From Candidatus Heimdallarchaeum aukensis (GTDB taxonomy: Archaea > Asgardarchaeota > Heimdallarchaeia > Heimdallarchaeales > Heimdallarchaeaceae), in contig CP084166.1 of the NCBI GenBank assembly GCA_021513695.1, positions 96,001-160,000 on the forward strand: a DNA stretch of 64,000 nt, in the 5' to 3' direction. Positions 2,029-38,200 of this stretch are shown in pieces. Position 1 is the stretch's first letter. Every line of letters begins with the position of its first letter. The notes under the pieces were generated by a model, which saw only the letters and a program-made list of their open reading frames with translations, was not told the origin of the DNA and did no database searches. Both the position numbers and the translations under genes were made by a program.

Positions 2029-3993
2029 TTAATTTCTTATTTTTATTTCTCTCTTAAACATTAAAGGTAATATTTGAGAAGTTTTCTCTTTTTCTTCTTC
2101 TGCTTTCTTAATTTGATGTTCATAGAGCATTTCTTCATCGTATTTTTTGTAATGCATATTAATGTTAGATTCAGTTATAGAGAAATGATTTTTCATTTTT
2201 GTTGCAAATACTTCTTTAATTTCCTTATTTTTATCTTTCATAATTGAAAGATTTGGGTTAAAGGGAATTAATCTATCATAGTCGTAAGTGGGTAATATAG
2301 CTTTACTGTTAGCCATGAATATAGTGTTGTTTGCAACATAGGTTGTAGTATTCTTCCATAGGGGTTCTCCTGTATTAGGATTAGGCTCGAATTTTGGGTA
2401 ATTAGAACTTGAAATATCCAGTCTTATTTTATGACCTGGAGTAAAAACATATGCAGTAGAATCTAATGTAATGTTTAATATGTATCTTTTTCCTGGTTCA
2501 AGAAGATCCCATGTTGAGTATGAATCTCTATTTCTAGCTCTAATGATTGTATCAGTAATAAGCATAGAAGTGTTGTCAGGGAAAACATCCGTTAGTTTTA
2601 CTGAAAAATCTGTATCTGTACAATTTGAAGATATCTCCAACATTACTTTAATTTGTCCTATAACAGTAATAGGTTCAGTAAGAGTTTCTGAAGTAAAAGT
2701 GAGTACGTCATCTCTTTTTTCTAATTCACTTTGATCATAAGTTCCTGCTTTTAGAGCAAGATTCCCTCCTCCTTCTGTAGGAACGGGGTTTAATGGGTTG
2801 TATAAATATGAAATAGCACTGTCTATATTTACTTCCTGTGCTAGACTTAAACTCATATTACTGTTGAAAAACAATGTTTTCTCTTCTGTTTCTAAAGGCC
2901 AATGATTAGAAGAATACCAATTATTACCAAGTTTATTATTGTTATAAGGGAGAGAACTCATGAGATAAAAAATAACATTAGGTAAATTGTCCCACCTAGT
3001 GCCATTATCCTTGAGCCACTTCTCGAAAACTATATCTCCTAACTCAACTAACATTCCTGCATTCTGGTTAGGATAAATATATGGTATCCCCTTATATTCT
3101 CCAGAAGGTAAAGCTCCAAAACCGCCAACATGAGTCCATGGCCCCATAATTAATTTTGAATTACCTGCTGCTCCTTCTCCTCCTTGTGTTTGATATCCTA
3201 CAAAGGCGTCAATAGTGTTCTGTGTGAATATATCATACCAACCACCTATATGCATAGCTGGAACATGTATGTCTTTGTAATTGTTAACTATTCTAACAGG
3301 ATCCCATCTATCGTCTAGTTTTTCCATATCTACAAAACTGTTTATTTCTTCAATTGTATAACCTTGAGCTACCATCCAAGGAACCATTAATTCTGATCTT
3401 AATACTCCACCTCTGAAAGCTGCTTCATAGACATCTGGTGTTCCTACAATTGGTACTTGACATTTTAATTCTTCTGAAGCATTAGGAGCTAGAAGATATT
3501 GGGCAATAGCTAAAGCTGACGGACCCCAAGTTCCAATTTTTCCATTACACCAAGGTTGAGCACTGATCCATTCTAAACTTCTTTTTCCATCAACACTCTC
3601 GGTAAAAAAGGGCATAGATTTTTCTCCTTCAGAAGCAAAGTAACCTCTAAAATCCTGAATTACAATTGCATAACCTTCTTCAGTATAAGTACTAAAGATT
3701 TCAAGTTCGTTCTTATTATATGGTGTTCTGATGAAAATTACTGGTAGTGAAGAATTAATGTTCTTTGGAATATATAAATCAGTAGCAAGCTTTACTCCAT
3801 CATCCATTTTTACAAAATATGTTATCTTGTAGCTATTTCCATGAATACTTGCGTTTAAGGGTATAGTCCAATTAAATTCTCTTGAAATCCTGTTATTATT
3901 TAGTAAAATAACCGTATAAATTCCAGTTAGCAATGAAAATCCTATGATACCTATTAATATGAAAGAATGGATATATTTTTTCATTTTTTTCAC
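2029..3993 (-). CDS. CocE/NonD-family (X-Pro dipeptidyl-peptidase S15-like) alpha/beta hydrolase, membrane-anchored or secreted
   Basis: The N-terminal hydrophobic segment is YIHSFILIGIIGFSLLTGIYTVILL. The family motif is QDFRGYFASEGE. The nucleophile region is TWGPSALAIAQYL. Length is 654 aa with a C-terminal beta-sandwich-type region. Confidence 0.65.
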   Translation of the reverse strand: MKKMKKYIHSFILIGIIGFSLLTGIYTVILLNNNRISREFNWTIPLNASIHGNSYKITYFVKMDDGVKLATDLYIPKNINSSLPVIFIRTPYNKNELEIFSTYTEEGYAIVIQDFRGYFASEGEKSMPFFTESVDGKRSLEWISAQPWCNGKIGTWGPSALAIAQYLLAPNASEELKCQVPIVGTPDVYEAAFRGGVLRSELMVPWMVAQGYTIEEINSFVDMEKLDDRWDPVRIVNNYKDIHVPAMHIGGWYDIFTQNTIDAFVGYQTQGGEGAAGNSKLIMGPWTHVGGFGALPSGEYKGIPYIYPNQNAGMLVELGDIVFEKWLKDNGTRWDNLPNVIFYLMSSLPYNNNKLGNNWYSSNHWPLETEEKTLFFNSNMSLSLAQEVNIDSAISYLYNPLNPVPTEGGGNLALKAGTYDQSELEKRDDVLTFTSETLTEPITVIGQIKVMLEISSNCTDTDFSVKLTDVFPDNTSMLITDTIIRARNRDSYSTWDLLEPGKRYILNITLDSTAYVFTPGHKIRLDISSSNYPKFEPNPNTGEPLWKNTTTYVANNTIFMANSKAILPTYDYDRLIPFNPNLSIMKDKNKEIKEVFATKMKNHFSITESNINMHYKKYDEEMLYEHQIKKAEEEKEKTSQILPLMFKREIKIRN

Positions 3994-4140
3994 GTGATCT
4001 TGATTATAGTAGATAATTAAATTTTAATCTTAATTAGTTTTGTTGTTTGAATTTGCAGTTTAATGAAAATCTAAGTTAATAACAGCATTTATAACTTTCC
4101 TTCTTCTTGCTAATTATCGGATTCTCAATTTTTCGTTACA

Positions 4141-4153
4141 AAAAAAATATAAA
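4141..4153 (+). promoter_or_regulatory. Putative TATA/BRE (aaaaaaatataaa) for the locus-1 ABC operon
   Basis: It is an identical 13-mer to the box upstream of the SDR gene. Its position suggests a TSS near 4176-4180 and a real start at TTG 4185 rather than TTG 4164. Confidence 0.3.
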
Positions 4154-4163
4154 TGTATGAAGT

Positions 4164-7100
4164 TTGCCAATTCTGATAAGGTTGAAATTAAGAAGTTCTT
4201 TTCTGATTATTATTGTACTTGTAGTTTTATCGTTTAATTCTTTAATTCTGGGTGAAAATGAATCAGAATATACTCTTCTATATACAGAGAATATAGATGA
4301 TGGAGGAATTATCGAAACTTTTCCTGTAATCGATATGAATCAAAACATCCATGTTTTTGTCCATTTGCGAACTTCAGTTGAGGATAAATTGATAGTTCTT
4401 TATAATGATGGTTCAAAGTTAATTCAATCCAATTTACTGGAAGACGTATCAGTAATAACATTTTATGATAGTTTCATTTATGATGATCAATTGTTTGTGA
4501 TTTTTAGCGCGGTAAATCCTTTAGGTACTATAAGTTTTTATGAATACTCTTGGTCTCCTTCTTCCAACAAGACTATTCCTATTGTTTCCATCGCTTCTAG
4601 TGTTTTACCATACATTAATTACTTCAAAGTTACAATCGATAATGGTACAACACATTTATTTTTCAACAAATTCTATGGTGATAAAAACGAATTTATGAAC
4701 ATCACTCATTATTACGGAAGATCTGGTTCATTCAAAAAAGAATATTTTTCCATTACAAATCCATATTACAGAGTAGGTTTAGATTTTGTCGTAAATAATG
4801 GTACAATATATTACTTTTATCAAAAATGGGAAGATGAATATAACAAAGGTGAATTTACAGGAGACTTTGGTTTTGGAATTTTAGATAATCAAACTTTTTA
4901 TCCTCAAGTAACTAAAATTTTCTCAAAGAAAATTGTTGGCAAAGTAGGAAAATTTGATGCAGAAAAAGGGATTAATGATAAAATATTCACATTCGCATTT
5001 TTTGAACAAAAGAAGATGTATTATGGATGGTTCAATGGTACTCATGTTTTAAATATGACTCAAAATCTATTAACACAAGATAACTATTATGATTTCTCTC
5101 TTAATACTGAAAATGATACAGAACAAATGTTCTTAATCACTAGACCAGAAGGTTTCGATTATGTTTCTGTTTTCAGAGGGACCTATAACAATCTAACACT
5201 TCTCTGGGAATTTCAACCAATAACAACTTTAGAGAAGATTTCTCCATATGGTTATTCATTCACACTCTTCGATTCTAGCTACTTACTACTTTATAATTCA
5301 ACAGTAAGTACAAAAGAAATCCCACATCCAATAGGTTTACAATATAAGAATGAAACTGCAGTTTCTTTGATATTAGTAACTAATCTCCCAATTTCTCCAA
5401 TAGAACCAATTATAGACAATGGTTTACAATTGTATAATCCTATTACTTACTTCATTAAGAATAACATTCCAATAGTAATTGCACTATCTGTGCTACTATT
5501 AATTGTTATTGCTCTTCTTACAGTATTGTGGATAAGAAAAGCAAAAACCATTAAAGCCTTCCTTTATGACACTTCAGAGGTTGGAGAACATAAAAAGTTC
5601 ATATTATTTTTCTTGAATTTAAACAGATACATATCTAACTTCTTTAGTACAGTAAAAACAATTGGTTTTTCGAATAAAAAGCGAACGTTAATTACTCTTG
5701 CAGGTTTTATAATCACAGGATATCTCCTTGCTTCTGCTATCATTATTTCTCAAAGTGAGCAATCCTCCTTAGTTAAGTCTTACTACAATGCAAATAATAT
5801 TATTTCAGATGGAAAAGCAAGTGTAAGTCTAATAACAAATATAGTTAGAATCAATGAAGGTTCAGCTACAATTGCTAAAAATTATGATGCTCTTGCTAAA
5901 TCACAAATTAGTTCAATACTTAGCGATCTCACACTTTCCAAATATATAACTTCTATAGAATCAGTTTATTATAGTTTTGTCCGTGCTCAACATCCTACTG
6001 TAGATTTTAACAAAGAAGTTAAGATATCTGCTTTTCCTGATGATTCTGAACCTTACCTTTCTTCTGTTATAACAGAAGGTCGTGCTCCACAAGCTGATAA
6101 TGAAATTTTAATCCAAGGATCACTCTTTAGAGATTTTGATTTAACTCTTAATGACAATATTACTATAGTTCTTTCTCAAAAAGCTGTTTTATCTAATGAA
6201 ATTCAGGATTATCAAGTGAATCTTACAATAGTAGGAATCTTTGAACAAGTAACAACTTCAGAACTTTATAAAACTAGTCTATTTCTTGGTGAATCAAATG
6301 ACATTTTTGGTTTGCTCGAAACTTCTCAAATAGTCTTATACAATACCAACTTCTTTGAACTTCTTTCAAACAGTAATAAAATAAACATGCAACTTAGAGG
6401 AATCTATCAGTTTAATTTAGACTTTTCAAACTTCAGGATTGAAGAACGTACATTAATATCAAAAGAATATGAAAGACTTGTAGGACTTACTTATTCATTT
6501 AGTCATGATAGTGCTTCTGCAGTAGCATTCACACAGGAGATAATAGAGTTCTTTGAGAACTTCAATAGCTACTACTTGAATAACATGACTCGTTTGTTTA
6601 TCTTTGCATTTCCAGCAATTCTACTGTCAATCTTTATGATCTTTGAATCTTCAGAACTCTTTTCTTCAAGTTATCAGCAAGAAGTTTCTGTACTTAAAAA
6701 TAGAGGTATTAGAAGAAGAAGGATGGTCTCGATTTATATTTGGATCAGACTATTTGAAGTTATATTGGCTACAATTATAAGTTACGGAATTGCCATTCTT
6801 ACTTCGATTCCTTTAATTAGAGTAAATGGTTTCCTAACTTTCAATAATAGAGATACAGAACTAAGAATAGGAAATCTTCCTGTTGAAATGCTTTTAACTG
6901 CTCTAATTCTATTTACTATTTCGATTCCAAGAATTCTTTTGATTGTAAGAAGAGAAAGAAGGATTGAAAAAACACCTAGTAAACTTTCAAAACTATTCAA
7001 AAGAATCAGCTGGAGAGAAGTAAGTTTTCTACTTATAGGTATGCTGATTTTTGGAGTATTCTACTATTTGACCTTTGTAGCATATATTGAAGCAAGTACG

Positions 7101-8462
7101 AAAAACTTTCCACTATTCCTTAACTTAACAATTATAGGGGCATTGTTTACTCTAATAGGAGCTTTACCACTTTTGATGAAACTTCTATCTATTGTTTGGA
7201 AAGGAATAGGAACAGTAATTTGGAATTCAGAAAAGAAAAACAAGTTCAGGTTCGTATTTGCTGAGATATCTAAAGATATAAGATATTTCGAAAATATTAC
7301 TCTAATATTCTTGTTACTTATTGGTATTATCATTCCTTCTATAATTGTTCCATTTTCCAAAGAGAGAACGCTTACTAATCAAGCTTATTTCATGAACGGA
7401 TCAGAGTTAATGGTTCCAAATTGGCACAAATATTCAAACGGAATAACATTAGAAAATATCAGTGCAATTGAAGGAGTAGAATCAGCTTCTTATGTAAGAC
7501 TATATACGATGTACAGTGACTATAATTTAGGATATCATGGAACAAAAATAATGGTCATAAACACAACGAGTTTTATGGAAACCGTCCGGCAACCTCCTAC
7601 AACAGTTACAAAGTTCAATTGGCAACAGTTGGGTTCTCTTACTAAAGATACTGTTATAATTAGTAGAACTTTATCTGAAAAGTATAAAAAAGAAGTAGGA
7701 GATGAGATTTTTCTTATTCATCCTGATGCAACTTTTGATCCAAGATATGACAAATTTGTTCATAAATACAATCATACTATGACAGTAATATCAACATTTG
7801 ATCTCTTCCCGATTTTCTTCCTAGAAAAAGATAAACAAGAAGAAGAGCTAATGATGATTGTAACAGCTGAATGCTTTGACACGATATTGAAAAACGTAGT
7901 TACTAGACGATTACTCACTTCTTCGGCATTGTTGATTAAACCAACTAGTAAAGATGATATAGATCAAGTTGCTCAACAAGTATTTGATATTTCAGGAGGA
8001 GCTTATGTTCAAAGTTTCAGTAGTTTGAAGGATAACCTCAAAACTCCTCTCTATAATATTTTTGTTATTGAAATGATTCTTTCATTGTTCATTGCTGTTG
8101 TAGTTTTAATATTTTCAAGCTTTACCACAGCAACAAAGATATTAGAAAAGAGAGTAATCAAGCACGATATAATGAAGAAAATGGGAATAAATGTTACGAC
8201 AATAATCAACCTATCAGCTATAGAAAGTTTTATAGCTGCAATAATACCTTCCATGCTTCTGGGTTCGTTATTTGGATTTTTAGTGATAAATCCGATGTTG
8301 GGCCTTCTAAGTTATGGAGCAGAACCTTATCCTCTTACCATGCAGTATCCATTAATTCCGTTATTACTGAGTTTCTTGGCTTTACCTGTTATACTGTATA
8401 TTAGTTTGACATTTAATTTGCGTAGAGAATTTGCCAATTATTCTCCTACACAATTGGAGTGA
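4164..8462 (+). CDS. Giant ABC transporter permease, paralog 1. It has an N-terminal signal/TM anchor, a roughly 420-aa N-x-S/T-rich extracellular domain, and two tandem MacB/FtsX-type permease modules (each 1 TM, a roughly 250-aa extracytoplasmic domain, then 3 TM).
   Basis: No in-frame ATG is available, so the start is TTG at 4164, or more likely TTG at 4185 (LKLRSSFLIIIVLVVLSF, signal-like). Many N-x-S/T sequons occur in residues 30-440. The first TM is IPIVIALSVLLLIVIALLTVLWI. FtsX-like 3-TM bundles occur twice. The gene ends TTGGAGTGA, 5 nt before the ATPase ATG. The region from 5531 onward is 100% identical to the copy at 9341. Confidence 0.8.
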   Translation: MPILIRLKLRSSFLIIIVLVVLSFNSLILGENESEYTLLYTENIDDGGIIETFPVIDMNQNIHVFVHLRTSVEDKLIVLYNDGSKLIQSNLLEDVSVITFYDSFIYDDQLFVIFSAVNPLGTISFYEYSWSPSSNKTIPIVSIASSVLPYINYFKVTIDNGTTHLFFNKFYGDKNEFMNITHYYGRSGSFKKEYFSITNPYYRVGLDFVVNNGTIYYFYQKWEDEYNKGEFTGDFGFGILDNQTFYPQVTKIFSKKIVGKVGKFDAEKGINDKIFTFAFFEQKKMYYGWFNGTHVLNMTQNLLTQDNYYDFSLNTENDTEQMFLITRPEGFDYVSVFRGTYNNLTLLWEFQPITTLEKISPYGYSFTLFDSSYLLLYNSTVSTKEIPHPIGLQYKNETAVSLILVTNLPISPIEPIIDNGLQLYNPITYFIKNNIPIVIALSVLLLIVIALLTVLWIRKAKTIKAFLYDTSEVGEHKKFILFFLNLNRYISNFFSTVKTIGFSNKKRTLITLAGFIITGYLLASAIIISQSEQSSLVKSYYNANNIISDGKASVSLITNIVRINEGSATIAKNYDALAKSQISSILSDLTLSKYITSIESVYYSFVRAQHPTVDFNKEVKISAFPDDSEPYLSSVITEGRAPQADNEILIQGSLFRDFDLTLNDNITIVLSQKAVLSNEIQDYQVNLTIVGIFEQVTTSELYKTSLFLGESNDIFGLLETSQIVLYNTNFFELLSNSNKINMQLRGIYQFNLDFSNFRIEERTLISKEYERLVGLTYSFSHDSASAVAFTQEIIEFFENFNSYYLNNMTRLFIFAFPAILLSIFMIFESSELFSSSYQQEVSVLKNRGIRRRRMVSIYIWIRLFEVILATIISYGIAILTSIPLIRVNGFLTFNNRDTELRIGNLPVEMLLTALILFTISIPRILLIVRRERRIEKTPSKLSKLFKRISWREVSFLLIGMLIFGVFYYLTFVAYIEASTKNFPLFLNLTIIGALFTLIGALPLLMKLLSIVWKGIGTVIWNSEKKNKFRFVFAEISKDIRYFENITLIFLLLIGIIIPSIIVPFSKERTLTNQAYFMNGSELMVPNWHKYSNGITLENISAIEGVESASYVRLYTMYSDYNLGYHGTKIMVINTTSFMETVRQPPTTVTKFNWQQLGSLTKDTVIISRTLSEKYKKEVGDEIFLIHPDATFDPRYDKFVHKYNHTMTVISTFDLFPIFFLEKDKQEEELMMIVTAECFDTILKNVVTRRLLTSSALLIKPTSKDDIDQVAQQVFDISGGAYVQSFSSLKDNLKTPLYNIFVIEMILSLFIAVVVLIFSSFTTATKILEKRVIKHDIMKKMGINVTTIINLSAIESFIAAIIPSMLLGSLFGFLVINPMLGLLSYGAEPYPLTMQYPLIPLLLSFLALPVILYISLTFNLRREFANYSPTQLE

Positions 8463-8467
8463 TGTAA

Positions 8468-9364
8468 ATGAGTGGAATATATGTTAAAGATTTAATAAAA
8501 GTGTATCATGACCCAGAAACAGATGTAAGGGTCTCTGCTTTACGTGGGTTAGATCTATTTGTAAAAGAAGGGGAAGTTGCTTCAATAATAGGTCCATCGG
8601 GTGCAGGAAAAAGTACACTAATCAAAATTCTATGTGGTTTAGAAACAGCTTCTGGAGGATCAGTTTATATAGGTGATACAAATATAATTGAACTTTCAGA
8701 AAAGGAGATGCAAACGTTTAGATTCAAAAATATTGGTATAATAAACCAATTTGTTGCCCAGAATTTATTACCTAATTTAACTGTAGAGCAGAACATCCTT
8801 TTACCACTAAAAATGAGATATGCTAGTAAACAAAGAGCAAGAAAAGAACTAGAGGAATTGTTATCTGCTTTAAATATAGAAAGGATACGTTATAATCCTG
8901 TAACCAAAATCTCAGGAGGAGAAGCAGTAAGAACAAGCATTGGAGTTACACTAGCTAAAAAACCTAAAATCATACTCGCGGACGAACCTACAGGACAATT
9001 GGACACTGCTAACACAAACAATATTATTGAAACTTTTAAAGAACTGAATGAAGCTTTCAACACTACTATTCTAGTTGTGACACATGACTTGAGGTTTAGA
9101 AACGCTTTCAATAAAAGCTATATTATTCGTGATGGGAGACTAGTTGGTGTAAATGTTGAAATGGACCGTTCTGAACTTGATTTTCTTATTAAACCTCAAG
9201 AGTCTTCTCTCCAATCTGTAATTGACAGCAGCCAATTCGTAAGATTACCTGATGAAGTATACCAAACTGGAGAATTCAAGCATATTGTTGAATTTGATAT
9301 TCATCCTTCAAAGAAATTTTCAATTTTATTCAATCCTAACGATAAGAAAAGCAAAAACCATTAA
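8468..9364 (+). pseudogene. Truncated ABC ATPase copy containing NBD1 only, created by the tandem duplication. The frame runs across the junction at 9340/9341 into permease codons and ends DKKSKNH*.
   Basis: The first 291 aa are identical to 12278..14065. Walker A is GPSGAGKST, the signature is ISGGEAVR, and Walker B is ILADEPTGQLD. NBD2 is absent. Confidence 0.6.
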
Positions 9365-12272
9365 AGCCTTCCTTTATGACACTTCAGAGGTTGGAGAACA
9401 TAAAAAGTTCATATTATTTTTCTTGAATTTAAACAGATACATATCTAACTTCTTTAGTACAGTAAAAACAATTGGTTTTTCGAATAAAAAGCGAACGTTA
9501 ATTACTCTTGCAGGTTTTATAATCACAGGATATCTCCTTGCTTCTGCTATCATTATTTCTCAAAGTGAGCAATCCTCCTTAGTTAAGTCTTACTACAATG
9601 CAAATAATATTATTTCAGATGGAAAAGCAAGTGTAAGTCTAATAACAAATATAGTTAGAATCAATGAAGGTTCAGCTACAATTGCTAAAAATTATGATGC
9701 TCTTGCTAAATCACAAATTAGTTCAATACTTAGCGATCTCACACTTTCCAAATATATAACTTCTATAGAATCAGTTTATTATAGTTTTGTCCGTGCTCAA
9801 CATCCTACTGTAGATTTTAACAAAGAAGTTAAGATATCTGCTTTTCCTGATGATTCTGAACCTTACCTTTCTTCTGTTATAACAGAAGGTCGTGCTCCAC
9901 AAGCTGATAATGAAATTTTAATCCAAGGATCACTCTTTAGAGATTTTGATTTAACTCTTAATGACAATATTACTATAGTTCTTTCTCAAAAAGCTGTTTT
10001 ATCTAATGAAATTCAGGATTATCAAGTGAATCTTACAATAGTAGGAATCTTTGAACAAGTAACAACTTCAGAACTTTATAAAACTAGTCTATTTCTTGGT
10101 GAATCAAATGACATTTTTGGTTTGCTCGAAACTTCTCAAATAGTCTTATACAATACCAACTTCTTTGAACTTCTTTCAAACAGTAATAAAATAAACATGC
10201 AACTTAGAGGAATCTATCAGTTTAATTTAGACTTTTCAAACTTCAGGATTGAAGAACGTACATTAATATCAAAAGAATATGAAAGACTTGTAGGACTTAC
10301 TTATTCATTTAGTCATGATAGTGCTTCTGCAGTAGCATTCACACAGGAGATAATAGAGTTCTTTGAGAACTTCAATAGCTACTACTTGAATAACATGACT
10401 CGTTTGTTTATCTTTGCATTTCCAGCAATTCTACTGTCAATCTTTATGATCTTTGAATCTTCAGAACTCTTTTCTTCAAGTTATCAGCAAGAAGTTTCTG
10501 TACTTAAAAATAGAGGTATTAGAAGAAGAAGGATGGTCTCGATTTATATTTGGATCAGACTATTTGAAGTTATATTGGCTACAATTATAAGTTACGGAAT
10601 TGCCATTCTTACTTCGATTCCTTTAATTAGAGTAAATGGTTTCCTAACTTTCAATAATAGAGATACAGAACTAAGAATAGGAAATCTTCCTGTTGAAATG
10701 CTTTTAACTGCTCTAATTCTATTTACTATTTCGATTCCAAGAATTCTTTTGATTGTAAGAAGAGAAAGAAGGATTGAAAAAACACCTAGTAAACTTTCAA
10801 AACTATTCAAAAGAATCAGCTGGAGAGAAGTAAGTTTTCTACTTATAGGTATGCTGATTTTTGGAGTATTCTACTATTTGACCTTTGTAGCATATATTGA
10901 AGCAAGTACGAAAAACTTTCCACTATTCCTTAACTTAACAATTATAGGGGCATTGTTTACTCTAATAGGAGCTTTACCACTTTTGATGAAACTTCTATCT
11001 ATTGTTTGGAAAGGAATAGGAACAGTAATTTGGAATTCAGAAAAGAAAAACAAGTTCAGGTTCGTATTTGCTGAGATATCTAAAGATATAAGATATTTCG
11101 AAAATATTACTCTAATATTCTTGTTACTTATTGGTATTATCATTCCTTCTATAATTGTTCCATTTTCCAAAGAGAGAACGCTTACTAATCAAGCTTATTT
11201 CATGAACGGATCAGAGTTAATGGTTCCAAATTGGCACAAATATTCAAACGGAATAACATTAGAAAATATCAGTGCAATTGAAGGAGTAGAATCAGCTTCT
11301 TATGTAAGACTATATACGATGTACAGTGACTATAATTTAGGATATCATGGAACAAAAATAATGGTCATAAACACAACGAGTTTTATGGAAACCGTCCGGC
11401 AACCTCCTACAACAGTTACAAAGTTCAATTGGCAACAGTTGGGTTCTCTTACTAAAGATACTGTTATAATTAGTAGAACTTTATCTGAAAAGTATAAAAA
11501 AGAAGTAGGAGATGAGATTTTTCTTATTCATCCTGATGCAACTTTTGATCCAAGATATGACAAATTTGTTCATAAATACAATCATACTATGACAGTAATA
11601 TCAACATTTGATCTCTTCCCGATTTTCTTCCTAGAAAAAGATAAACAAGAAGAAGAGCTAATGATGATTGTAACAGCTGAATGCTTTGACACGATATTGA
11701 AAAACGTAGTTACTAGACGATTACTCACTTCTTCGGCATTGTTGATTAAACCAACTAGTAAAGATGATATAGATCAAGTTGCTCAACAAGTATTTGATAT
11801 TTCAGGAGGAGCTTATGTTCAAAGTTTCAGTAGTTTGAAGGATAACCTCAAAACTCCTCTCTATAATATTTTTGTTATTGAAATGATTCTTTCATTGTTC
11901 ATTGCTGTTGTAGTTTTAATATTTTCAAGCTTTACCACAGCAACAAAGATATTAGAAAAGAGAGTAATCAAGCACGATATAATGAAGAAAATGGGAATAA
12001 ATGTTACGACAATAATCAACCTATCAGCTATAGAAAGTTTTATAGCTGCAATAATACCTTCCATGCTTCTGGGTTCGTTATTTGGATTTTTAGTGATAAA
12101 TCCGATGTTGGGCCTTCTAAGTTATGGAGCAGAACCTTATCCTCTTACCATGCAGTATCCATTAATTCCGTTATTACTGAGTTTCTTGGCTTTACCTGTT
12201 ATACTGTATATTAGTTTGACATTTAATTTGCGTAGAGAATTTGCCAATTATTCTCCTACACAATTGGAGTGA
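9252..12272 (+). CDS. 5'-truncated duplicate of the permease, with the two FtsX-type modules only. Real homology starts at 9342 (IRKAKTIK...). The ATG at 9252 is a fortuitous start inside the 3' end of the truncated ATPase.
   Basis: It is 100% identical to residues about 457-1432 of the 4164..8462 product. It lacks the signal peptide and extracellular N-domain. It could be an assembly artefact or a recent amplification. Confidence 0.45.
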   Translation: MKYTKLENSSILLNLIFILQRNFQFYSILTIRKAKTIKAFLYDTSEVGEHKKFILFFLNLNRYISNFFSTVKTIGFSNKKRTLITLAGFIITGYLLASAIIISQSEQSSLVKSYYNANNIISDGKASVSLITNIVRINEGSATIAKNYDALAKSQISSILSDLTLSKYITSIESVYYSFVRAQHPTVDFNKEVKISAFPDDSEPYLSSVITEGRAPQADNEILIQGSLFRDFDLTLNDNITIVLSQKAVLSNEIQDYQVNLTIVGIFEQVTTSELYKTSLFLGESNDIFGLLETSQIVLYNTNFFELLSNSNKINMQLRGIYQFNLDFSNFRIEERTLISKEYERLVGLTYSFSHDSASAVAFTQEIIEFFENFNSYYLNNMTRLFIFAFPAILLSIFMIFESSELFSSSYQQEVSVLKNRGIRRRRMVSIYIWIRLFEVILATIISYGIAILTSIPLIRVNGFLTFNNRDTELRIGNLPVEMLLTALILFTISIPRILLIVRRERRIEKTPSKLSKLFKRISWREVSFLLIGMLIFGVFYYLTFVAYIEASTKNFPLFLNLTIIGALFTLIGALPLLMKLLSIVWKGIGTVIWNSEKKNKFRFVFAEISKDIRYFENITLIFLLLIGIIIPSIIVPFSKERTLTNQAYFMNGSELMVPNWHKYSNGITLENISAIEGVESASYVRLYTMYSDYNLGYHGTKIMVINTTSFMETVRQPPTTVTKFNWQQLGSLTKDTVIISRTLSEKYKKEVGDEIFLIHPDATFDPRYDKFVHKYNHTMTVISTFDLFPIFFLEKDKQEEELMMIVTAECFDTILKNVVTRRLLTSSALLIKPTSKDDIDQVAQQVFDISGGAYVQSFSSLKDNLKTPLYNIFVIEMILSLFIAVVVLIFSSFTTATKILEKRVIKHDIMKKMGINVTTIINLSAIESFIAAIIPSMLLGSLFGFLVINPMLGLLSYGAEPYPLTMQYPLIPLLLSFLALPVILYISLTFNLRREFANYSPTQLE

Positions 12273-12277
12273 TGTAA

Positions 12278-14065
12278 ATGAGTGGAATATATGTTAAAGA
12301 TTTAATAAAAGTGTATCATGACCCAGAAACAGATGTAAGGGTCTCTGCTTTACGTGGGTTAGATCTATTTGTAAAAGAAGGGGAAGTTGCTTCAATAATA
12401 GGTCCATCGGGTGCAGGAAAAAGTACACTAATCAAAATTCTATGTGGTTTAGAAACAGCTTCTGGAGGATCAGTTTATATAGGTGATACAAATATAATTG
12501 AACTTTCAGAAAAGGAGATGCAAACGTTTAGATTCAAAAATATTGGTATAATAAACCAATTTGTTGCCCAGAATTTATTACCTAATTTAACTGTAGAGCA
12601 GAACATCCTTTTACCACTAAAAATGAGATATGCTAGTAAACAAAGAGCAAGAAAAGAACTAGAGGAATTGTTATCTGCTTTAAATATAGAAAGGATACGT
12701 TATAATCCTGTAACCAAAATCTCAGGAGGAGAAGCAGTAAGAACAAGCATTGGAGTTACACTAGCTAAAAAACCTAAAATCATACTCGCGGACGAACCTA
12801 CAGGACAATTGGACACTGCTAACACAAACAATATTATTGAAACTTTTAAAGAACTGAATGAAGCTTTCAACACTACTATTCTAGTTGTGACACATGACTT
12901 GAGGTTTAGAAACGCTTTCAATAAAAGCTATATTATTCGTGATGGGAGACTAGTTGGTGTAAATGTTGAAATGGACCGTTCTGAACTTGATTTTCTTATT
13001 AAACCTCAAGAGTCTTCTCTCCAATCTGTAATTGACAGCAGCCAATTCGTAAGATTACCTGATGAAGTATACCAAACTGGAGAATTCAAGCATATTGTTG
13101 AATTTGATATTCATCCTTCAAAGAAATTTTCAATTTTATTCAATCCTAACAACGTTACAAAGAAAGAAATTTACGAAATTTTACCTAAAACACATGAATA
13201 CTCTGATATTGAAGAAAAGATTGAAGCAGAAGCAGAAGATCACAAAGTTTCATTTGACGAAGTAAGACCCATAATGGAGCAAGAATTTCTAGCAGATTTA
13301 TCTGACAGAAATATTATTGAAGTAAAAAACCTTGTAAAATCTTTTCCATTAGGCAAACGTACCCATGAAGTTCTAAAAGGAATAAGTTTCAACATTCGAA
13401 AAGGTGATTTTGTAGTTATTGCTGGAAAAAGTGGAGCAGGAAAAACTACTCTTATGAATGTTGTTTCTGGAGTCGAAAAACCCACTTCAGGTGAAATTAT
13501 CATCGATGGCATAAACATCACAGAAGAAAGCGGTTCAACAATATCAAACATGCGTTTCAAGGATATTGCCATGATTAGTCAAGTCAACAATCTATTCAGT
13601 CAATATACAGTAAAAGAAAATATGGAGATTCCCGAGATTTTCAACGGAATTAAAGACTTTTATTCACACATTGACTTTCAAGAGATAGCAGAAGAATGTA
13701 AAATTGATCATAGACTAAACCAGTATCCTCCAGAACTTTCAGCAGGAGAAAAACAACGTGCTGCGCTAGCTGTAGCTCTCTCTAGACATACCCCAATAAT
13801 CTTTGCAGATGAACCTACAGCCAATTTAGATTCAAGGTTAGCGAGAAATATTATCTCAATGCTCATGGAGACTGCAAGAGTTTACAACACCACAATTGTA
13901 ATGAGTACTCACGATTTGTCTCTAGTAAGACCTGGATTCAGATTAATAAGATTGCAAGATGGAAAAATAATTGAAGATGTAAGAGTTACAAAGAACAAGC
14001 TTAAAGGAATTTTGGAAGACTATTTAGATATTAAAATAGAAGAAAACGGTTCAGTTAGCTATTAA
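12278..14065 (+). CDS. ABC transporter ATP-binding protein with two tandem NBDs joined by a roughly 110-aa conserved linker domain, paralog 1
   Basis: NBD1 has GPSGAGKSTL, ISGGEAVR, ILADEPTGQLD and VVTHDLRF. NBD2 has GKSGAGKTTL, LSAGEKQRAALAVAL, IIFADEPTANLD and STHDLSL. The ATG lies 5 nt after the permease stop and is preceded by GGAGTGAT (SD-like). Confidence 0.85.
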   Translation: MSGIYVKDLIKVYHDPETDVRVSALRGLDLFVKEGEVASIIGPSGAGKSTLIKILCGLETASGGSVYIGDTNIIELSEKEMQTFRFKNIGIINQFVAQNLLPNLTVEQNILLPLKMRYASKQRARKELEELLSALNIERIRYNPVTKISGGEAVRTSIGVTLAKKPKIILADEPTGQLDTANTNNIIETFKELNEAFNTTILVVTHDLRFRNAFNKSYIIRDGRLVGVNVEMDRSELDFLIKPQESSLQSVIDSSQFVRLPDEVYQTGEFKHIVEFDIHPSKKFSILFNPNNVTKKEIYEILPKTHEYSDIEEKIEAEAEDHKVSFDEVRPIMEQEFLADLSDRNIIEVKNLVKSFPLGKRTHEVLKGISFNIRKGDFVVIAGKSGAGKTTLMNVVSGVEKPTSGEIIIDGINITEESGSTISNMRFKDIAMISQVNNLFSQYTVKENMEIPEIFNGIKDFYSHIDFQEIAEECKIDHRLNQYPPELSAGEKQRAALAVALSRHTPIIFADEPTANLDSRLARNIISMLMETARVYNTTIVMSTHDLSLVRPGFRLIRLQDGKIIEDVRVTKNKLKGILEDYLDIKIEENGSVSY

Positions 14066-14092
14066 TTTTCTTTCTTTTTTTTACAATTGATA
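14066..14092 (+). terminator. Oligo-T tract (ttttctttcttttttttac) immediately after the ATPase stop, a possible archaeal intrinsic terminator
   Basis: A T-rich run lies directly downstream of the stop codon and is followed by 160 bp of noncoding sequence. Confidence 0.3.
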
Positions 14093-14229
14093 ACTTTAAC
14101 TTTTTTACCTAATTTTAGTTTGCTAGTTAAAATTAGTGACAGTTATTACTGCATCCATAATTAAAGCTAGAGTGATTTTTTTACTATTTCAGAGGTTTAA
14201 CTTAAAAACACGATGATTTTTTTTTCTGT

Positions 14230-15012
14230 TTGAGAAAGTTTTTTATTGAAATAAAAAAAATAACTCACATGGTAACTTTTCAAATTGAAAACAGTAAACT
14301 GAAAAACATTGAACTAGTCTGTATTGACAAAGATGGAACTGTCCTAACTTACGATATGTATTTTCCTGTGATGAAAAAACGTGCAGAAGAATTAGTAAAA
14401 AGGTATAATTTACCAAATGAAACAAAGAAAGATATACTAGAAATCATGGGTCTAGATTCGAATGAGCAAATTATAATGGGTGGGAGAATTCATATGCCTC
14501 GTTTGGAGAACATAAGAGCTACGATTGATTTTTTAAGAAAAAATTCAGTTAATGCAAGTTTTAAAGAGATTTCTGACCTCTTTAATGAAATTGATGAAAT
14601 TGTAGATTTATCAAAACATACTAAAGTATATCCTGGAATTGAAATGTTTCTTAAGACATTAAAAGAAAAGAATGTAAAAATTGTTATGACTACATTTGAT
14701 AGTACAGATGCAGCAAAAAGGCATCTTAAAAATAGTAAATTACTAGAATACTTTGATCTTGTTCTTGGAATAGATGAAGATTCTCCATATAATCCTAAAC
14801 CTGCTCCTGATATGCTGCAATACTCTTGTAAACTTCTAGAAGTAGACCCTCATAGGAGTGTTGTTATTGGAGATGACAATAACGATATGTTATTGGCAAA
14901 AAACGCTGGTGCATTAGCTGCTATTGGTGTTTTAACTGGAAGATCTAAAAGAGAGGATTTGAAAAACGCTGATTTTATCATAGATTCTATAAATGATATT
15001 AAAATAAAATAG
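14230..15012 (+). CDS. HAD-superfamily hydrolase (phosphatase-like)
   Basis: Motif I is VCIDKDGTV (DxDGT). Motif IV is VIGDDNNDMLLAKNAG. The real start may be the Met at MVTFQIEN, about 14269. Confidence 0.75.
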   Translation: MRKFFIEIKKITHMVTFQIENSKLKNIELVCIDKDGTVLTYDMYFPVMKKRAEELVKRYNLPNETKKDILEIMGLDSNEQIIMGGRIHMPRLENIRATIDFLRKNSVNASFKEISDLFNEIDEIVDLSKHTKVYPGIEMFLKTLKEKNVKIVMTTFDSTDAAKRHLKNSKLLEYFDLVLGIDEDSPYNPKPAPDMLQYSCKLLEVDPHRSVVIGDDNNDMLLAKNAGALAAIGVLTGRSKREDLKNADFIIDSINDIKIK

Positions 15013-15026
15013 AAATAAGAAATTAA

Positions 15027-16223
15027 GTGATTTTTATGGGAAAGGCTAAAGTAGCAATAGTAAGAATTGAAAATGGAGACTTTTTTTCTGCAGTACAAAA
15101 AGCTATAGAACTAGCTGGAGGGCTTCCGGAAAAAATTGAGAAAGATATCTTAATTAAACCAAATATTCTCACTTTCAAAAAAACAGAAGAAGAGACTTCA
15201 CCTATAATTACTAATCCTGAAGTCGTTAAATCTATAATTAAAATAGTAAAAGAAAAAGACTACAACAAAAAAATTTATGTTGCAGATTCATCGGGTAGCG
15301 GTCTTGATACATCAAAAGTAATCGAGAAAACCGGTTTTACAAAATTAGAAGAAGAAGGAGTTACAGTATGCCAAATATCTTTGAATGGTTCGACTGAAAT
15401 AGAGCCAAAAAATCCTTTAAAACTTAAAAGAACTACTTTTTCTAATCTGTCTTTAAATTCTGCAATTATCAACGTTCCAAAAATGAAAACTCACACTTTA
15501 ACAAGAGTGACATTAGCGATAAAGAATCTTTTTGGAACTATTCCTGGGATGGAGAAATCTAGAATACACGCTGTAGGTAATACTGCTAAAGGATTTAGTA
15601 AGTGTTTAGTTGACATTTATTCTGTATTAAAAGATAATATCGTGATGAATGTAATGGATGCTTCTATAGCTATGGAAGGGCATGGGCCTTCTCACGGTTC
15701 TCCTGTTAAAATGGATCTTATCTTGGCAAGTAAAGATGCAGTTGCTTTAGATGCAGTAGCAACAAGTATAATGAGTGAGAAACCTTCTCGCGTTTTTACC
15801 ACTAGAATTGCTAGCGAAAATAATCTTGGTGTAGGAAATTTAAATGATATTGAAATAGTTGGTGAAAAGATAGAAAACATTCGACGCAAATTTAAAATGC
15901 CAGAAAAGTTTATCTCTTTCCTTCCGATAGGTATATTCTTTGAACTAGCTAAAAAACAACCTAAATACAAAGGTTCTGGATGTATAGCTTGTTTACGATG
16001 TCAAAAAATCTGTCCTGTACAAGCTATTGTAGTTGATAAAAAAGAAAAAAGACCTTATTTCGATTATAAGAAATGTATCTCATGCTTCAGCTGCAATGAA
16101 ATCTGTCCAGAAGGAGTAATTACGATTACTAGGCGTAAATATGGAAAACACATACTTTTCGGAGGTTTACTTAGTTCATTAATCATTGCTCTAATTGTTA
16201 TATTATCAATACTTCTCACTTAA
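15027..16223 (+). CDS. DUF362-type protein with a C-terminal 2x[4Fe-4S] ferredoxin domain and a terminal TM helix
   Basis: CIACLRCQKICPVQAI and CISCFSCNEICPEGVI are two CxxCxxCxxxCP cluster motifs. The C-terminal hydrophobic tail is LLSSLIIALIVILSILL. Confidence 0.65.
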   Translation: MIFMGKAKVAIVRIENGDFFSAVQKAIELAGGLPEKIEKDILIKPNILTFKKTEEETSPIITNPEVVKSIIKIVKEKDYNKKIYVADSSGSGLDTSKVIEKTGFTKLEEEGVTVCQISLNGSTEIEPKNPLKLKRTTFSNLSLNSAIINVPKMKTHTLTRVTLAIKNLFGTIPGMEKSRIHAVGNTAKGFSKCLVDIYSVLKDNIVMNVMDASIAMEGHGPSHGSPVKMDLILASKDAVALDAVATSIMSEKPSRVFTTRIASENNLGVGNLNDIEIVGEKIENIRRKFKMPEKFISFLPIGIFFELAKKQPKYKGSGCIACLRCQKICPVQAIVVDKKEKRPYFDYKKCISCFSCNEICPEGVITITRRKYGKHILFGGLLSSLIIALIVILSILLT

Positions 16224-16321: not shown

Positions 16322-18154
16322 ATGTCGGAAGTCTTTGACAAAATTCTCTTATTATTAGATGAAATTTTTGAGATTGTAACAAATAAACGTTGGGCACATT
16401 ATTCTAAAAAAAGAACAGAAATATTATTATCACAAAAGATTTATGAACTAAAACATATCCTTTCCGAGATTCCTATTGACTTTAACATTAATAGCAAGGC
16501 TTCTTCTGAATATTTTGAAAAAATATTAAGTAAAATAACTGAAATTATGAATAATATGACTCCAGCAGATCTTCTATTTTCGTGGTATGAAATTGAAATT
16601 TTTAGATTAAACTTTGCAACCATTTATGCAAATATGTGGGGTCAGGCGGGAGACTTAAGTATAGCTGGGACAGCTAATGCACTAGCAAATGCTTTACTAG
16701 GAATACAAACCTTAGATGTTGATGATCTTTACGTTCCTTGGGGACACCACCAATTTCATAAAAGACGTGTAATTATTTTAAACTATCTCGATTCAGCTAT
16801 GAGTTTTTTCTTTACGCTTGTAAATACACTAGATATTGTCTACAAACATGATATAGAACATTGGTTGACAGAAGCTTTAAGGGCATGTGAGCAATATTTA
16901 TACTACTCTGATTTATTTTGGGATGTTCCTAAAAACGTTGCTTTAGAAAAGAAAAGAAGATTGGATACTTCCAAACCAAATTACTCTATGTATTACGCAT
17001 TATTTTTCGGAATAGATGAAATAATAAACAATTTTCTGATGAGTCAAAAGTTCTTTTTTGATAGTGAAATAAATGTGGAAAATGAAACTTTTGCAGTCAA
17101 AACTCCTGAAGATTTTTGGAAAACAGTCTACAAGATTATTGATAAGTTAGATTTTTACATTTCGGATTTGAAGGAGCATGTCGAGAAAAAAACATTTGGT
17201 TATAACGAATCTCCTCTTGAGGATGAAACAGTATTAGAATCTCTTTACCAAATCGATCTTACAAAAGTATATGTCAAAGGTTTTTATTCACTTTTTAAAT
17301 ACTTTAAAGAGAGCGCTGCTAATATTCTAAAATCTCTTAGAGATACTGTATTCATTAATTTCTTTAATTTTCTTCATAGATATGAAGAAATGATGAGCCA
17401 ACCTGACTTTATTAGTAGTCAAATGGCAGACGGTATATCTTTTCTGTTAGAAGAATTGTTACCTTGGAGCGGGTTAATAGCACTAAAATTAGATGATTAT
17501 TCTCTATTAGAAGAAGTAGAAAAAAAATTTGCTTATGTTTTTTCAAAAAAAGGAAAAGATCGATACCCTACTATGAATGGTTTAAGGATACTAGTAAGGC
17601 TTACACTTGATATTTCAAAAGATAAAACTGATAGATTTAAAGAATATGCAAAAGACTTAATTTATATCTCGAAAAAAGCTTCTTTTGAACCACGAAACTC
17701 TTTTGCTTTTGCATTGTTAGGTTATTTGTTAAGCTTAATAATAAAAACAATTTCCATTAAACAATTTAAACAGACAATTTCTGAAGTTTTTGAAAATATG
17801 TACGCTTCGTTTGGTCACCAATTGTCTGATGAAATTGAAATATATCTTCACAACTTGTTTTTGGCTCTCGATAATGAAAAACCCTCTTACAATATGAGTA
17901 GGTTATTAGCTCCAAAATATTATGATCCTTACACTTATTTTGTCCCAGATTTGAATAAAATTGCGAAAGATATTGAGAAAGATATAATCTATCTTCCATT
18001 TAATCTACAAAGCGATTCTATTATTCATGCTGAGCATTCAATGATAGAAGAACCTGAAACTTATTTAAAAAGAACGGAGCTAACAGAGTCACAAGGTAAA
18101 GAACAAGGAACAGAGATGTTGGCAGAACCTAAACTAGAAAAAGAAGAGGAATAG
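16322..18154 (+). CDS. Hypothetical protein, probably all-alpha, with a Glu/Lys-rich C-terminus
   Basis: It is a 610-aa ORF. No motif was recognised. It is convergent with a roadblock-like gene. Confidence 0.45.
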   Translation: MSEVFDKILLLLDEIFEIVTNKRWAHYSKKRTEILLSQKIYELKHILSEIPIDFNINSKASSEYFEKILSKITEIMNNMTPADLLFSWYEIEIFRLNFATIYANMWGQAGDLSIAGTANALANALLGIQTLDVDDLYVPWGHHQFHKRRVIILNYLDSAMSFFFTLVNTLDIVYKHDIEHWLTEALRACEQYLYYSDLFWDVPKNVALEKKRRLDTSKPNYSMYYALFFGIDEIINNFLMSQKFFFDSEINVENETFAVKTPEDFWKTVYKIIDKLDFYISDLKEHVEKKTFGYNESPLEDETVLESLYQIDLTKVYVKGFYSLFKYFKESAANILKSLRDTVFINFFNFLHRYEEMMSQPDFISSQMADGISFLLEELLPWSGLIALKLDDYSLLEEVEKKFAYVFSKKGKDRYPTMNGLRILVRLTLDISKDKTDRFKEYAKDLIYISKKASFEPRNSFAFALLGYLLSLIIKTISIKQFKQTISEVFENMYASFGHQLSDEIEIYLHNLFLALDNEKPSYNMSRLLAPKYYDPYTYFVPDLNKIAKDIEKDIIYLPFNLQSDSIIHAEHSMIEEPETYLKRTELTESQGKEQGTEMLAEPKLEKEEE

Positions 18155-35259: not shown

Positions 35260-38200
35260 TTGCATATATTTATTAATGTCTGTTTAAAATTCACCTTTAT
35301 GAGTATAAAAAGCAAAAAAATTTTTTTGTCTTTTATTATTATTATGTTTATTACTTTAACAATAAATAGTGTAAAAGCTGAAGAGCAAGCAGCTCCTATT
35401 TTATATACGAAGTATTCTTCTTACACCAATATAGTTGAGTCAGTTTTTGACGAGAATAATCAAATGCATATTTTTCTCGGTCGTTCAGATGAATTTAATT
35501 ATAAAATCTTACATATCTTTAATGGAGAAGCGATACTCATTGATGCTGGTGTAAATAACATAGAAAGATTTTTCAAAGCAAAAATCTTCCCTGGAGGAGT
35601 TGCATTATTCTATTTAGATCACGATATTACAAAAGGAGATACATTATACTATTATTATTATTTCATAAATAACGGTTCACATGGCCTCAAGGTAATAACA
35701 AAATCAGGATTAGCATCTAATTATAAAATCAATATATTTCAGGATAACTCCAGATTTACAATTATTACTTCGTATAGTATTTCCTATTATACAAGTGCAA
35801 TAAAAAGCTTTAACTGCAGTTTTAGCGGAGAAATTTTAGACTCTGAAAGTTATGATGTTGAAGTCTCAATTTACAAGATAAAAGGATTCGTCTTTCAGAA
35901 TGAAAAAATATTCTTTTATTTTTACAAAGATGTTTATAACGCTAGTGCTTACCTCTCTTTTCTCTATGTTCAAGGGATAAACGAAAATGGACATATTTTC
36001 AATTCGAGCGTAATTGAATATCCTAATAGTTATTCAGAAACAATTATAACGCAAGGAATCAAAAAAGATTTTTATATCCAAACTATACAAGATGGTCAAA
36101 TTTTTTATTATTCTTTTAATGAAAATGAGACTTTTAGTTTCAGTGACTATAATTCTGCAGATTTTTATATTTACTATTATAACGAATATTCTATCGAGTA
36201 CACAGGTAATTGGATAAACACGACTTTCATAGAGTATGAATACATGTATTATAGTGACTTCTCTTATTCTTCAACTATTAACATTTTAGCTATCGTTACT
36301 TCATATAATTCAGAACAAATGTTGTTTGCAAAATTTGAAAAAACTATAACTTTTCAAGAAAGCTTTTTCCAATACTCAGTAGACATTGCTCTCGATGGTC
36401 CTTATTATTATATGTTTATTGCCACTAAAAGTACTGAAAAAATCCACTTTAATGAAACTGAAGTTTTAGGATTATATGTTCTCACAGATGATCCTAATTT
36501 TGTTCCACCTAAAGAACCAATATACTATGAAATCAAGCATATCTCCAATTTTACCTATTTCATGAAAAATTATTGGTGGACCCTTTTAATCGGTTTCGGT
36601 TTCATTGGTGGAATGTACGGTATTTTCCACAAGAGGATTAATAAGTCAATTCGCAAAATGAAAAAATTCCTGTTAAGACCTGTTGTGGACAATGTTTCTA
36701 CTGCTAAACTAATTTTAATCAACATTTGGCTATTTTTCTTTAATACTTATAGTTTAGTTCTTTCTTTGTGGAGAGTTAATAAAAAAAGACTAATAATAAA
36801 CATTCTTGGTCTTTCAATTCTTGCGTTTGTTCTGATAAACACTTCAGTACTTTATAATTCAGAACAGGCAACTGTTCTTCAGAAATATTTTGACAACCAT
36901 GACTTTGGTTCTAATTATGATACTTCTGTAGATTTTACAAAGACATTTATTGAACAATCAAAAACCGCTGAAAATATTTCCTTAATTAATGAAAATTATA
37001 CTTTATTAGCTGCAGAAGATATAATGAAATCTTTGAAACAAAAAGCTCCTACTTTAGCTTCCTTAATAGTTGATTATCAACTAACCAGTTTAATTACTAT
37101 CACAGGTTCAAACGTTACTTACGGAAATGAAGATATTCAATATTATTCAATAAACTCAAGCTATAATTTTGTTTTACAATCACTACTAGTTAATGGTACT
37201 TTGCCTAATAAAAAAGGAGAAGTAATTGTTTCTAGTAGTGTTGCTGAATATTATGACTTTCAAGTGGGTGAAGTAATACAATTTCAAGCAGTAAGCTATA
37301 AAGGTGCTTTCCTAAATTATGATGTAGTCAACCTAACTGTTTCTGGAATTTTTTCTAGTATTGGTTACAATACTTTGCGACAACTATGCGCAGATAATGA
37401 TCTACCATTTGATCCTGTTAGATATCTTACCTCTAACATGTTTTCAGCTATCGCTTTTAACAAATACTTCTTAAAAAATCTAGAAAATATCTCTTTAGGA
37501 CAACTAACCTTGTACGGAGATTTAGAGTTTATTTATGACTTTTCTTCGCTTGATCTAGAATCCTTTGAAAAACTAGTTGAAGAATATGAGTATTTAACTG
37601 AAAATCCTACTCAATACTTTAAATTTGATCCCAATGGTACCTGGTCATTAAGTTACGAGTTACGATATGTTATAATATATTTCCAATATGACCTAATAAT
37701 CATGCGGTTTTTAATCTATTTACTAACAATACCTATAGTCTTCTTAGCTTTATTTTTATTAAGTGAAGTTAACTCTATCTTTGCTTCAAGTTTTAAACAA
37801 GAGATAGAAATATTACAATCCCAAGGATTATCTGTTGGAAGAATAACTTTCATTTATTCTTCAATGAAATTCGGAGAGTCAGTTGTTGGAACAGTATTTG
37901 GACTTCTTGGAACATTTATATTTACACCAATTCTTTTAAAAGTTGATAAATTTCTACAATTTACGAACCCAATTTATCATTTTACTTTAAAGGGTAGCTT
38001 ATCTACAATTTTCATAACCTTTTTTGCTTTAATCATAGCTTCTCTCCCTCGAATTATTAGATTGGCAAAACAATCTGAAAAGAAACAAAAAGAACCAAGA
38101 AGATTTGTAACTCTAATAAAACGATTAAGAATACATTACTTTTTAGTCGTTATTTTTGGCGGAATTATTGCTTTCGGGGGATATTATTTAGCTGCTATTT

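Follow-up and report, generated by a model that had tools for sequence, protein, structure and literature searches.

What is the origin of the perfect 3,810-nt repeat that lies within an ATP-binding cassette (ABC) transporter operon of the archaeon Candidatus Heimdallarchaeum aukensis PM71, and does it exist in the organism or only in its genome assembly? The window analyzed here is a stretch of 64,000 nt (64 kb) of the deposited 3,081,793-bp chromosome (GenBank assembly GCA_021513695.1, contig CP084166.1, positions 96,001 to 160,000 of the forward strand), and all coordinates given below are positions in this window. Near its left end lies a gene pair encoding a large permease and an ATPase with two nucleotide-binding domains (NBDs). 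Within this pair, the sequence at positions 5531-9340 recurs at positions 9341-13150, head to tail on the forward strand, and direct comparison of the two copies gives 0 mismatches in 3,810 nt. We propose that the repeat is very likely a genuine and very recent tandem segmental duplication in the sequenced H. aukensis PM71 population, and not a product of scaffolding or polishing.

A perfect tandem repeat with a blunt, out-of-register junction

Direct comparison bears out a preliminary description of this DNA in its coordinates, in the perfect identity of the two copies and in the sequence at the junction. Not one further base matches at either end of the identical run, and the flanking 100 nt of the two copies share 37% and 29% identity in register, which is background at 31% G+C. 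In a repeat scan of the window, the only long perfect repeat was the pair 5531-9340/9341-13150, with a spacing of 3810. A chance origin of a 3,810-nt perfect repeat is excluded. The copies are adjacent and head to tail, no spacer separates them, and the repeat does not continue into their flanks; this is the arrangement of a tandem duplication. Each copy consists of permease codons 457-1432, a 5-nt spacer and ATPase codons 1-291. The unit thereby spans the last 68% of the permease gene (its 3' part) and the first 49% of the ATPase gene (its 5' part), and it contains no complete gene.

The sole sequence owed entirely to the duplication is the novel junction 9340/9341 (..CAATCCTAAC|GATAAGAAAA.., within 9311-9370 on the forward strand). 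Its two sides meet bluntly and share no microhomology (0 nt). In the ATPase frame, position 9341 is codon position 1, and in the permease frame it is codon position 3; because the two genes are joined out of register at this position, the ATPase copy stops after seven foreign codons. The duplication had been called in-frame, which is misleading. The unit length is indeed divisible by 3, but this divisibility has no effect because the junction links two different genes and is out of register for both.

The ends of the unit are branch points in the read graph

Is the junction present in the sequencing reads, apart from the deposited assembly? In Logan, each Sequence Read Archive (SRA) run is assembled alone by a k=31 de Bruijn graph, with no repeat resolution, scaffolding or polishing. 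Logan discards k-mers that are seen once and outputs the non-branching paths that remain after error simplification (PMC12424806), and every 31-mer is present once in its contigs. When the window with its tandem is simulated at k=31, the left contig stops at 5560, a separate contig covers the unit (5531-9340), the 60-nt junction stretch AAGAAATTTTCAATTTTATTCAATCCTAAC|GATAAGAAAAGCAAAAACCATTAAAGCCTT becomes a separate unitig, and the right contig starts at 13121. When the locus is simulated as a single copy, there is no break within 3000-15500. The contig ends expected of a real junction, which were fixed before the look-up, correspond to partial products of 465, 976, 291 and 314 amino acids (aa).

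These ends were found in run SRR15988954. Contig SRR15988954_468 (69,432 bp) ends at window position 5560 with the 465-aa cut permease, and it matches the window without mismatch over 5,560 nt. Contig SRR15988954_23034 is 3,810 bp long and reproduces 5531-9340 letter for letter (0 mismatches), with cut products of 976 and 291 aa. Contig SRR15988954_6740 (31,428 bp) starts at 13121 with the 314-aa cut ATPase and matches the window over 15,034 nt, again with 0 mismatches. Similarly, one contig of SRR15988958 begins exactly at 5531, and one contig of SRR15988959 begins exactly at 13121. Both ends of the unit are branch points of the read graph, independently of the deposited assembly. Neither a scaffolder nor a polisher can introduce branching into a graph that is made from reads only, and these breaks therefore argue for a real junction. 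We conclude that the sequenced DNA contained the junction at appreciable coverage. To judge by its long contigs, which are free of errors, SRR15988954 is probably the Illumina run of the genome paper (PMC8813620). The preliminary description had left a choice between a recent amplification and an assembly artefact; the recent event stands, and the artefact is largely refuted by the Logan breaks in these three runs.

Recovery of the neighboring genes from Logan was nearly complete, with intact products found for 7 of the 8 flanking genes tested. The full-length permease and the full-length ATPase were not recovered in Logan, and neither the 298-aa truncated ATPase nor the 595-aa intact ATPase had an exact match in the contig index. 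The predicted partial products were found via the contig index; they had no exact match in the protein-cluster table, which evidently excludes cut products. None of the polymerase chain reaction (PCR) primers of the genome paper (PMC8813620) lies within the window.

Ancestral state of the locus

The closest outside relative of the permease belongs to Candidatus Heimdallarchaeum endolithica (87% aa identity). The whole window is collinear with this genome at 83-86% nt identity, the permease-ATPase pair is single-copy there (84-86% nt identity), and both window copies align to one and the same H. endolithica stretch (L001 11350-15158). The single-copy arrangement recurs in a second Heimdallarchaeaceae genome, and no near-identical repeat of at least 300 bp was found in 18 related loci from GTDB genomes. 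Judged by these comparisons, in which synteny is identical, the ancestral state is the single copy. Short probes were also matched against larger collections. The left-boundary 39-mer has 0 matches in GTDB genomes, and the junction 39-mer and the natural right-boundary 32-mer have 0 matches each in JGI metagenome contigs. Since the right-boundary 32-mer is absent too from the JGI contigs, the strain is absent there and the junction miss is uninformative.

Genes and protein products of the duplicated locus

What does the duplicated locus encode? As had been stated from the letters alone, ORF (open reading frame) analysis finds the outer genes intact. They are the full-length permease of 1432 aa (4164-8462; GenBank UJG40935.1, in which it starts at 4182) and the intact tandem-NBD ATPase of 595 aa, which is LolD/FtsE-like (12278-14065; UJG40938.1). 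Two further products predicted in the preliminary description, a 298-aa truncated ATPase and a 5'-truncated permease ORF opening at the ATG at 9252, are likewise found between them, and all of these ORFs lie on the forward strand. The truncated ATPase (8468-9364; UJG40936.1) consists of ATPase residues 1-291 followed by DKKSKNH and a stop codon, and it covers NBD1 and some 55 aa of the linker between the NBDs, in addition to the 7 out-of-frame residues. The truncated permease ORF of 1006 aa (9252-12272; UJG40937.1) joins 30 out-of-frame residues, which are ATPase DNA read out of frame, to permease residues 457-1432. An exact-sequence look-up identifies the proteins of the window as those of the deposited chromosome, where both junction ORFs have been entered as proteins. 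The duplication is thus part of the public record, and an artificial insertion into the window was rejected on this ground.

The domain map of the permease is based on hydropathy, weak Pfam matches and a PDB match. It comprises an N-terminal module (residues 1-456) and two FtsX/MacB-like halves, each consisting of one transmembrane segment (TM), an extracytoplasmic domain and three TMs. The N-terminal module has a signal anchor, which is followed by about 400 aa of extracytoplasmic domain and by TM2 (residues 437-455), and it is conserved in all orthologues and paralogues found. The FtsX matches, at 20.3 and 16.5 bits against a cut-off of 25.5, and the MacB_PCD match, at 25.7 bits against a cut-off of 27, are weak and sub-threshold; the PDB match is the FtsX-family permease YtrF (E=0.002). 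The ATPase scores 354.5 bits with the LolD profile TIGR02211 (cut-off 307.75) and 310.6 bits with the FtsE profile TIGR02673 (cut-off 264.85). Each profile matches two stretches of the protein, which are the two NBDs, and both are of the LolD/FtsE/MacB type. The permease breakpoint, W456|I457, lies directly behind TM2, where the putative double FtsX core begins on the cytoplasmic side. The ATPase breakpoint, at residue 291, lies in the linker between NBD1 and NBD2, with NBD2 beginning at about residue 346. Both breakpoints sit between domains.

Which of these products would be made? In a Shine-Dalgarno survey, internal operon genes carry GGAGTGAT or GGAGGTG upstream of the start codon. The Shine-Dalgarno-like GGAGTGAT occurs at 8456-8463 on the forward strand, upstream of the ATPase start and overlapping the permease stop codon, and the truncated ATPase retains this native ribosome-binding site. 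The second copy of the motif, at 12266-12273, serves the intact ATPase. Upstream of the ATG at 9252 and of the junction we found neither a Shine-Dalgarno-like motif nor a TATA-like box. Translation from this ATG, which had been considered possible, is doubtful given that no GGAGTGAT- or GGAGGTG-like motif precedes it. From these signals we infer that the cell would make the full permease, the NBD1-only fragment and the full ATPase, and little or none of the truncated permease.

The start of the full-length permease is ambiguous between the TTG at 4164, chosen by Prodigal on the Logan contigs, and the TTG at 4182, chosen in GenBank. A TATA-like AAAATATAAA lies about 13-22 nt upstream of 4164, in the interval 4140-4185 of the window, and its placement suggests that the permease transcript may be leaderless or have a very short leader.

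An inverted repeat at the left breakpoint

How might the duplication have arisen? An imperfect inverted repeat occupies positions 5499-5554. Its arms, 5499-5520 and 5533-5554, are complementary at 19 of 22 positions and enclose a 12-nt loop at 5521-5532, and the left breakpoint 5530|5531 falls inside this loop. It is the strongest short-loop (hairpin-forming) inverted repeat in the window. As single-stranded DNA the two strands fold with energies of −10.4 and −12.1 kcal/mol (z-scores −3.0 and −3.9). No other inverted repeat of its class occurs in the collapsed 60-kb window, and none was found in five Markov-shuffled controls. The 72-nt segment at the left breakpoint is in the top 0.23% by folding energy (35 of 15,030 segments, spread over about six loci). 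The orthologous inverted repeat of H. endolithica is weaker (15/22), and the right breakpoint has no comparable inverted repeat or fold.

In bacteria, palindromic sequences stall forks or are cut, and they thereby seed illegitimate duplications. The hairpin at the left breakpoint points to structure-triggered illegitimate recombination as the probable origin of the H. aukensis duplication. Microhomology-mediated joining was rejected, as the junction has 0 nt of shared sequence, and the lack of homology at the ends argues against homologous recombination as the origin. Involvement of a mobile element, insertion sequence (IS) or integrase was also rejected: the unit ends carry neither repeats nor tRNA genes nor an integrase, no other repeat family touches the unit boundaries, and the window contains no tRNA genes.

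We propose that illegitimate (homology-independent) joining gave rise to a head-to-tail copy of the 3,810-bp stretch that begins at permease codon 457 and ends at ATPase codon 291. One end was probably begun at the hairpin-forming inverted repeat, via a stalled fork or a cut cruciform, and the other end falls in unremarkable sequence. This event would have created a permease ORF that lacks the N-terminal module and evident start signals, while preserving the full-length permease and ATPase, and the NBD1-only ATPase fragment would be made from the native ribosome-binding site. The duplication probably reached high frequency through the founder effect of the enrichment culture, and it would be expected to be lost readily via recombination between the 3.8-kb copies.

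Alternative explanations

A number of points weigh against a genuine chromosomal tandem duplication begun at a hairpin. The association of hairpin and breakpoint was spotted after the fact and is a lead, not proof. About 51% of random joins would also show 0 nt of microhomology, and such a junction is unlike the product of microhomology-mediated joining. A strain at 97-100% identity is represented in other assemblies by fragments that include a 3,198-bp contig (99% aa identity), in which the permease ORF runs unbroken across the left boundary; the duplication is therefore, on the sequence of that contig, not species-wide but specific to this strain or culture. As for the reads, the evidence is the graph topology implied by junction reads, not those reads or their depth themselves, and the three runs apparently come from one DNA sample, so that they are independent in method but not in biology. 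The graph gives neither the copy number nor the share of carrier cells, and one chromosomal copy accompanied by a 3.8-kb circle would yield an identical graph. The junction could accordingly be real while the chromosome itself is not duplicated, either because such a circle coexists with the single copy or because a minority of cells carry the tandem and the assembler unrolled a loop. In both cases the de Bruijn graph is exactly that of a fixed tandem duplication, and recombination between the copies would release circles and restore single-copy cells. However, the segment holds two gene fragments and no replication or integration genes, so that a circle could not sustain a copy number that would survive the error removal of the graph, and the authors of the genome closed a circular chromosome with the tandem arrangement. 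We assign only a small probability to a real junction on an unduplicated chromosome, and a mixed population is no true rival, as it is the likely state of the tandem duplication that we favor. The remaining structural alternative is an assembly artefact, in which two contigs that overlap were concatenated, one contig was used at two places, or a long read made chimeric by multiple displacement amplification (MDA) misled the scaffolder, and polishing then equalized the copies. The published pipeline provides an opening for this, since it combined metaSPAdes, two rounds of LRScaf with Nanopore reads from MDA-preamplified DNA, and Pilon (PMC8813620). A negative gap estimate makes LRScaf 'merge' contigs (PMC6902338), an overlap left unmerged would give a blunt junction with zero divergence, and the genome paper does not mention the duplication (PMC8813620). 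Such an unmerged 3.8-kb contig overlap was our initial leading idea, and it was rejected on the Logan contig breaks. In a false duplication, a reads-only assembly passes through the boundaries, but here the raw-read assembly, made without scaffolding, long-read linking or polishing, breaks at both of them and returns the unit as its own 3,810-bp contig, two further runs share the same boundaries, and a single-copy locus gives no break in simulation. In addition, the Illumina library was not MDA-amplified (PMC8813620). We regard an assembly artefact as highly improbable.

If the tandem duplication is genuine, was it selected? Selection for dosage, which had been suggested, is unsupported because permease codons 457-1432 and ATPase codons 1-291 do not add up to a complete gene. 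A selected amplification is expected to carry a complete gene together with its expression signals inside the unit, and the unit at this locus does not. A selected innovation could instead be an additional, simpler transporter that combines a stand-alone NBD1 ATPase with a core permease lacking the N-terminal module, or an altered expression of the operon that was favored. Both cuts fall between domains, with a joint chance of about 1-2% by a rough post hoc estimate: the ATPase is cut at residue 291 in the inter-NBD linker, and the permease core that follows W456|I457 keeps a self-consistent N-in topology. Likewise, the tblastn alignment to a paralogue begins at residue 457. Yet the truncated permease ORF has no ribosome-binding site or promoter-like motif, and the N-terminal module is conserved throughout orthologues and paralogues, so that a protein without the module is probably without native function. 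No complete gene is duplicated, and the NBD1-only fragment could compete with the full ATPase. Moreover, a founder effect in the enrichment accounts for a high frequency without selection. H. aukensis rose in the enrichment from 0.03% to 4-7% of the community, and a founder effect therefore suffices for a frequent variant that is neutral or mildly harmful. On balance a selected innovation is unlikely, and the duplication is most likely a passenger, either neutral or mildly harmful. It is also improbable that the event was a functional innovation at birth, in which cuts at domain boundaries split the fused heimdallarchaeal ABC system, so that a stand-alone NBD and a core permease without its N-terminal module were gained; if it was, selection would have been offered a new, simpler transporter in the archaeal lineage closest to eukaryotes.

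Relation to known duplications and transporters

Homology-independent ('short-junction') tandem duplications in Salmonella and Escherichia coli have reportedly been described by Reams and Roth in 2015 and by Kugelberg et al. in 2010. The H. aukensis duplication resembles these bacterial events in its head-to-tail arrangement and its size of a few kb, in the lack of a repeat or IS at its ends, in its zero divergence and the little or no homology at its junction, and in its expected instability. It also shares with them a quasi-palindrome, the kind of sequence proposed as their initiation site. It differs from them in its Asgard host, in that just one of the two breakpoints is at an inverted repeat, and in having no known selection and no visible inverted (tandem inversion duplication) intermediate. 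The event is of an ordinary mutation kind, homology-independent tandem duplication, seen at zero divergence in an Asgard archaeon. False duplications in scaffolded or gap-closed assemblies offer a second comparison; perfect identity, a blunt junction and an error-prone hybrid pipeline are common to both, but the boundaries at this locus are present already in the reads-only graph. A third comparison is with selected gene duplication-amplification, such as ampC amplicons and heteroresistance, in which a chromosomal segment is likewise present as tandem direct repeats that are unstable and can vary within the population (PMC12625342, PMC11846870). Those amplicons carry a complete selected gene, often in many copies, whereas the assembly here has two copies of a unit with two gene fragments.

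The duplicated genes themselves resemble transporters of the MacB/LolCDE/FtsEX type (type VII ABC transporters). The NBDs are LolD/FtsE-like. For the permease the assignment is tentative: its hydropathy pattern is compatible with it, its halves match FtsX and MacB_PCD weakly, and it matches YtrF in the PDB. Unlike in MacB, LolCDE or FtsEX, both permease halves are fused, together with the conserved 456-aa N-terminal module, into a protein of about 1,430 aa, the two NBDs are fused in one 595-aa protein, and the Pfam matches fall below the gathering thresholds.

These results bear on the use of this genome. H. aukensis is among the very few closed Heimdallarchaeia genomes and is a widely used reference, and 3.8 kb of it would be an unstable, strain-specific duplication. 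UJG40936.1 (UniRef A0A9Y1BKW9) and UJG40937.1 (UniRef A0A9Y1BLG3) would be by-products of the junction and not members of their protein families. More broadly, the locus would be a clean Asgard example of illegitimate recombination beside a hairpin that yields gene fragments cut at domain boundaries, and it adds a small data point to the debate on gene duplication in the Asgard lineage. Finally, Logan contig ends can substitute for read mapping when perfect repeats in finished genomes are judged.

Other features of the window

The duplicated locus is one of three paralogous ABC loci in the 64 kb, at 4164-14065 (forward strand), 35260-41333 (forward strand) and 55032-61195 (reverse strand). Each encodes a permease of about 1,430-1,470 aa, with an N-terminal module and two FtsX/MacB-like halves, and a tandem-NBD ATPase of 580-595 aa. 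The permeases of the three loci share 21-23% aa identity, and all three loci are conserved in H. endolithica. The relatives found for these loci come from Heimdallarchaeota or Asgard assemblies in every case (18/18). The ATPase genes of the second and third loci (40020-40917 and 55433-56330) run in opposite directions and are 70-82% identical at the nt level in stretches of 94-314 nt, and their permease partners are far more diverged; the similarity of these ATPase genes could reflect a later duplication or gene conversion. Beside the first locus, the gene for a 610-aa protein (16322-18154, forward strand) is conserved in the same position in H. endolithica. The only Pfam hint for this protein is a sub-threshold match to the Sec7-like HUS-domain (E=1.3e-4, 22.2 bits against a cut-off of 27.3), which, if real, would be a eukaryote-like signature of membrane trafficking.

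Shorter repeats occur elsewhere in the window. A 33-nt tandem repeat of about 8 units (44479-44742) lies in the ORF 41819-44758 (forward strand) and encodes ..TYTEPKSPSED.. near the C-terminus of a 979-aa protein, which also has a zinc-ribbon motif at residues 823-844. This repeat is probably among the 'intragenic tandem repeats' counted by the genome paper (PMC8813620). Two tandem 117-nt units with 97% identity (51558-51791) lie in the ORF 51292-52254 (reverse strand), and their region has the most stable local DNA folds of the window (−16.6 kcal/mol, at about 48,030-48,136 in collapsed coordinates). The seryl-tRNA synthetase encoded at 53426-54961 (reverse strand) has the N-terminal domain PF18490 (tRNA_bind_4), which we take to be the mark of the unusual methanogen-type enzyme, as opposed to the N-terminal coiled coil of the common bacterial type. 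Likewise on the reverse strand, at 49113-51200, is the gene for a 695-aa protein that resembles metallo-beta-lactamase/beta-CASP nucleases and has, at its N-terminus (residues 102-170), a weak match to the Cdc6 C-terminal winged helix (E=0.002).

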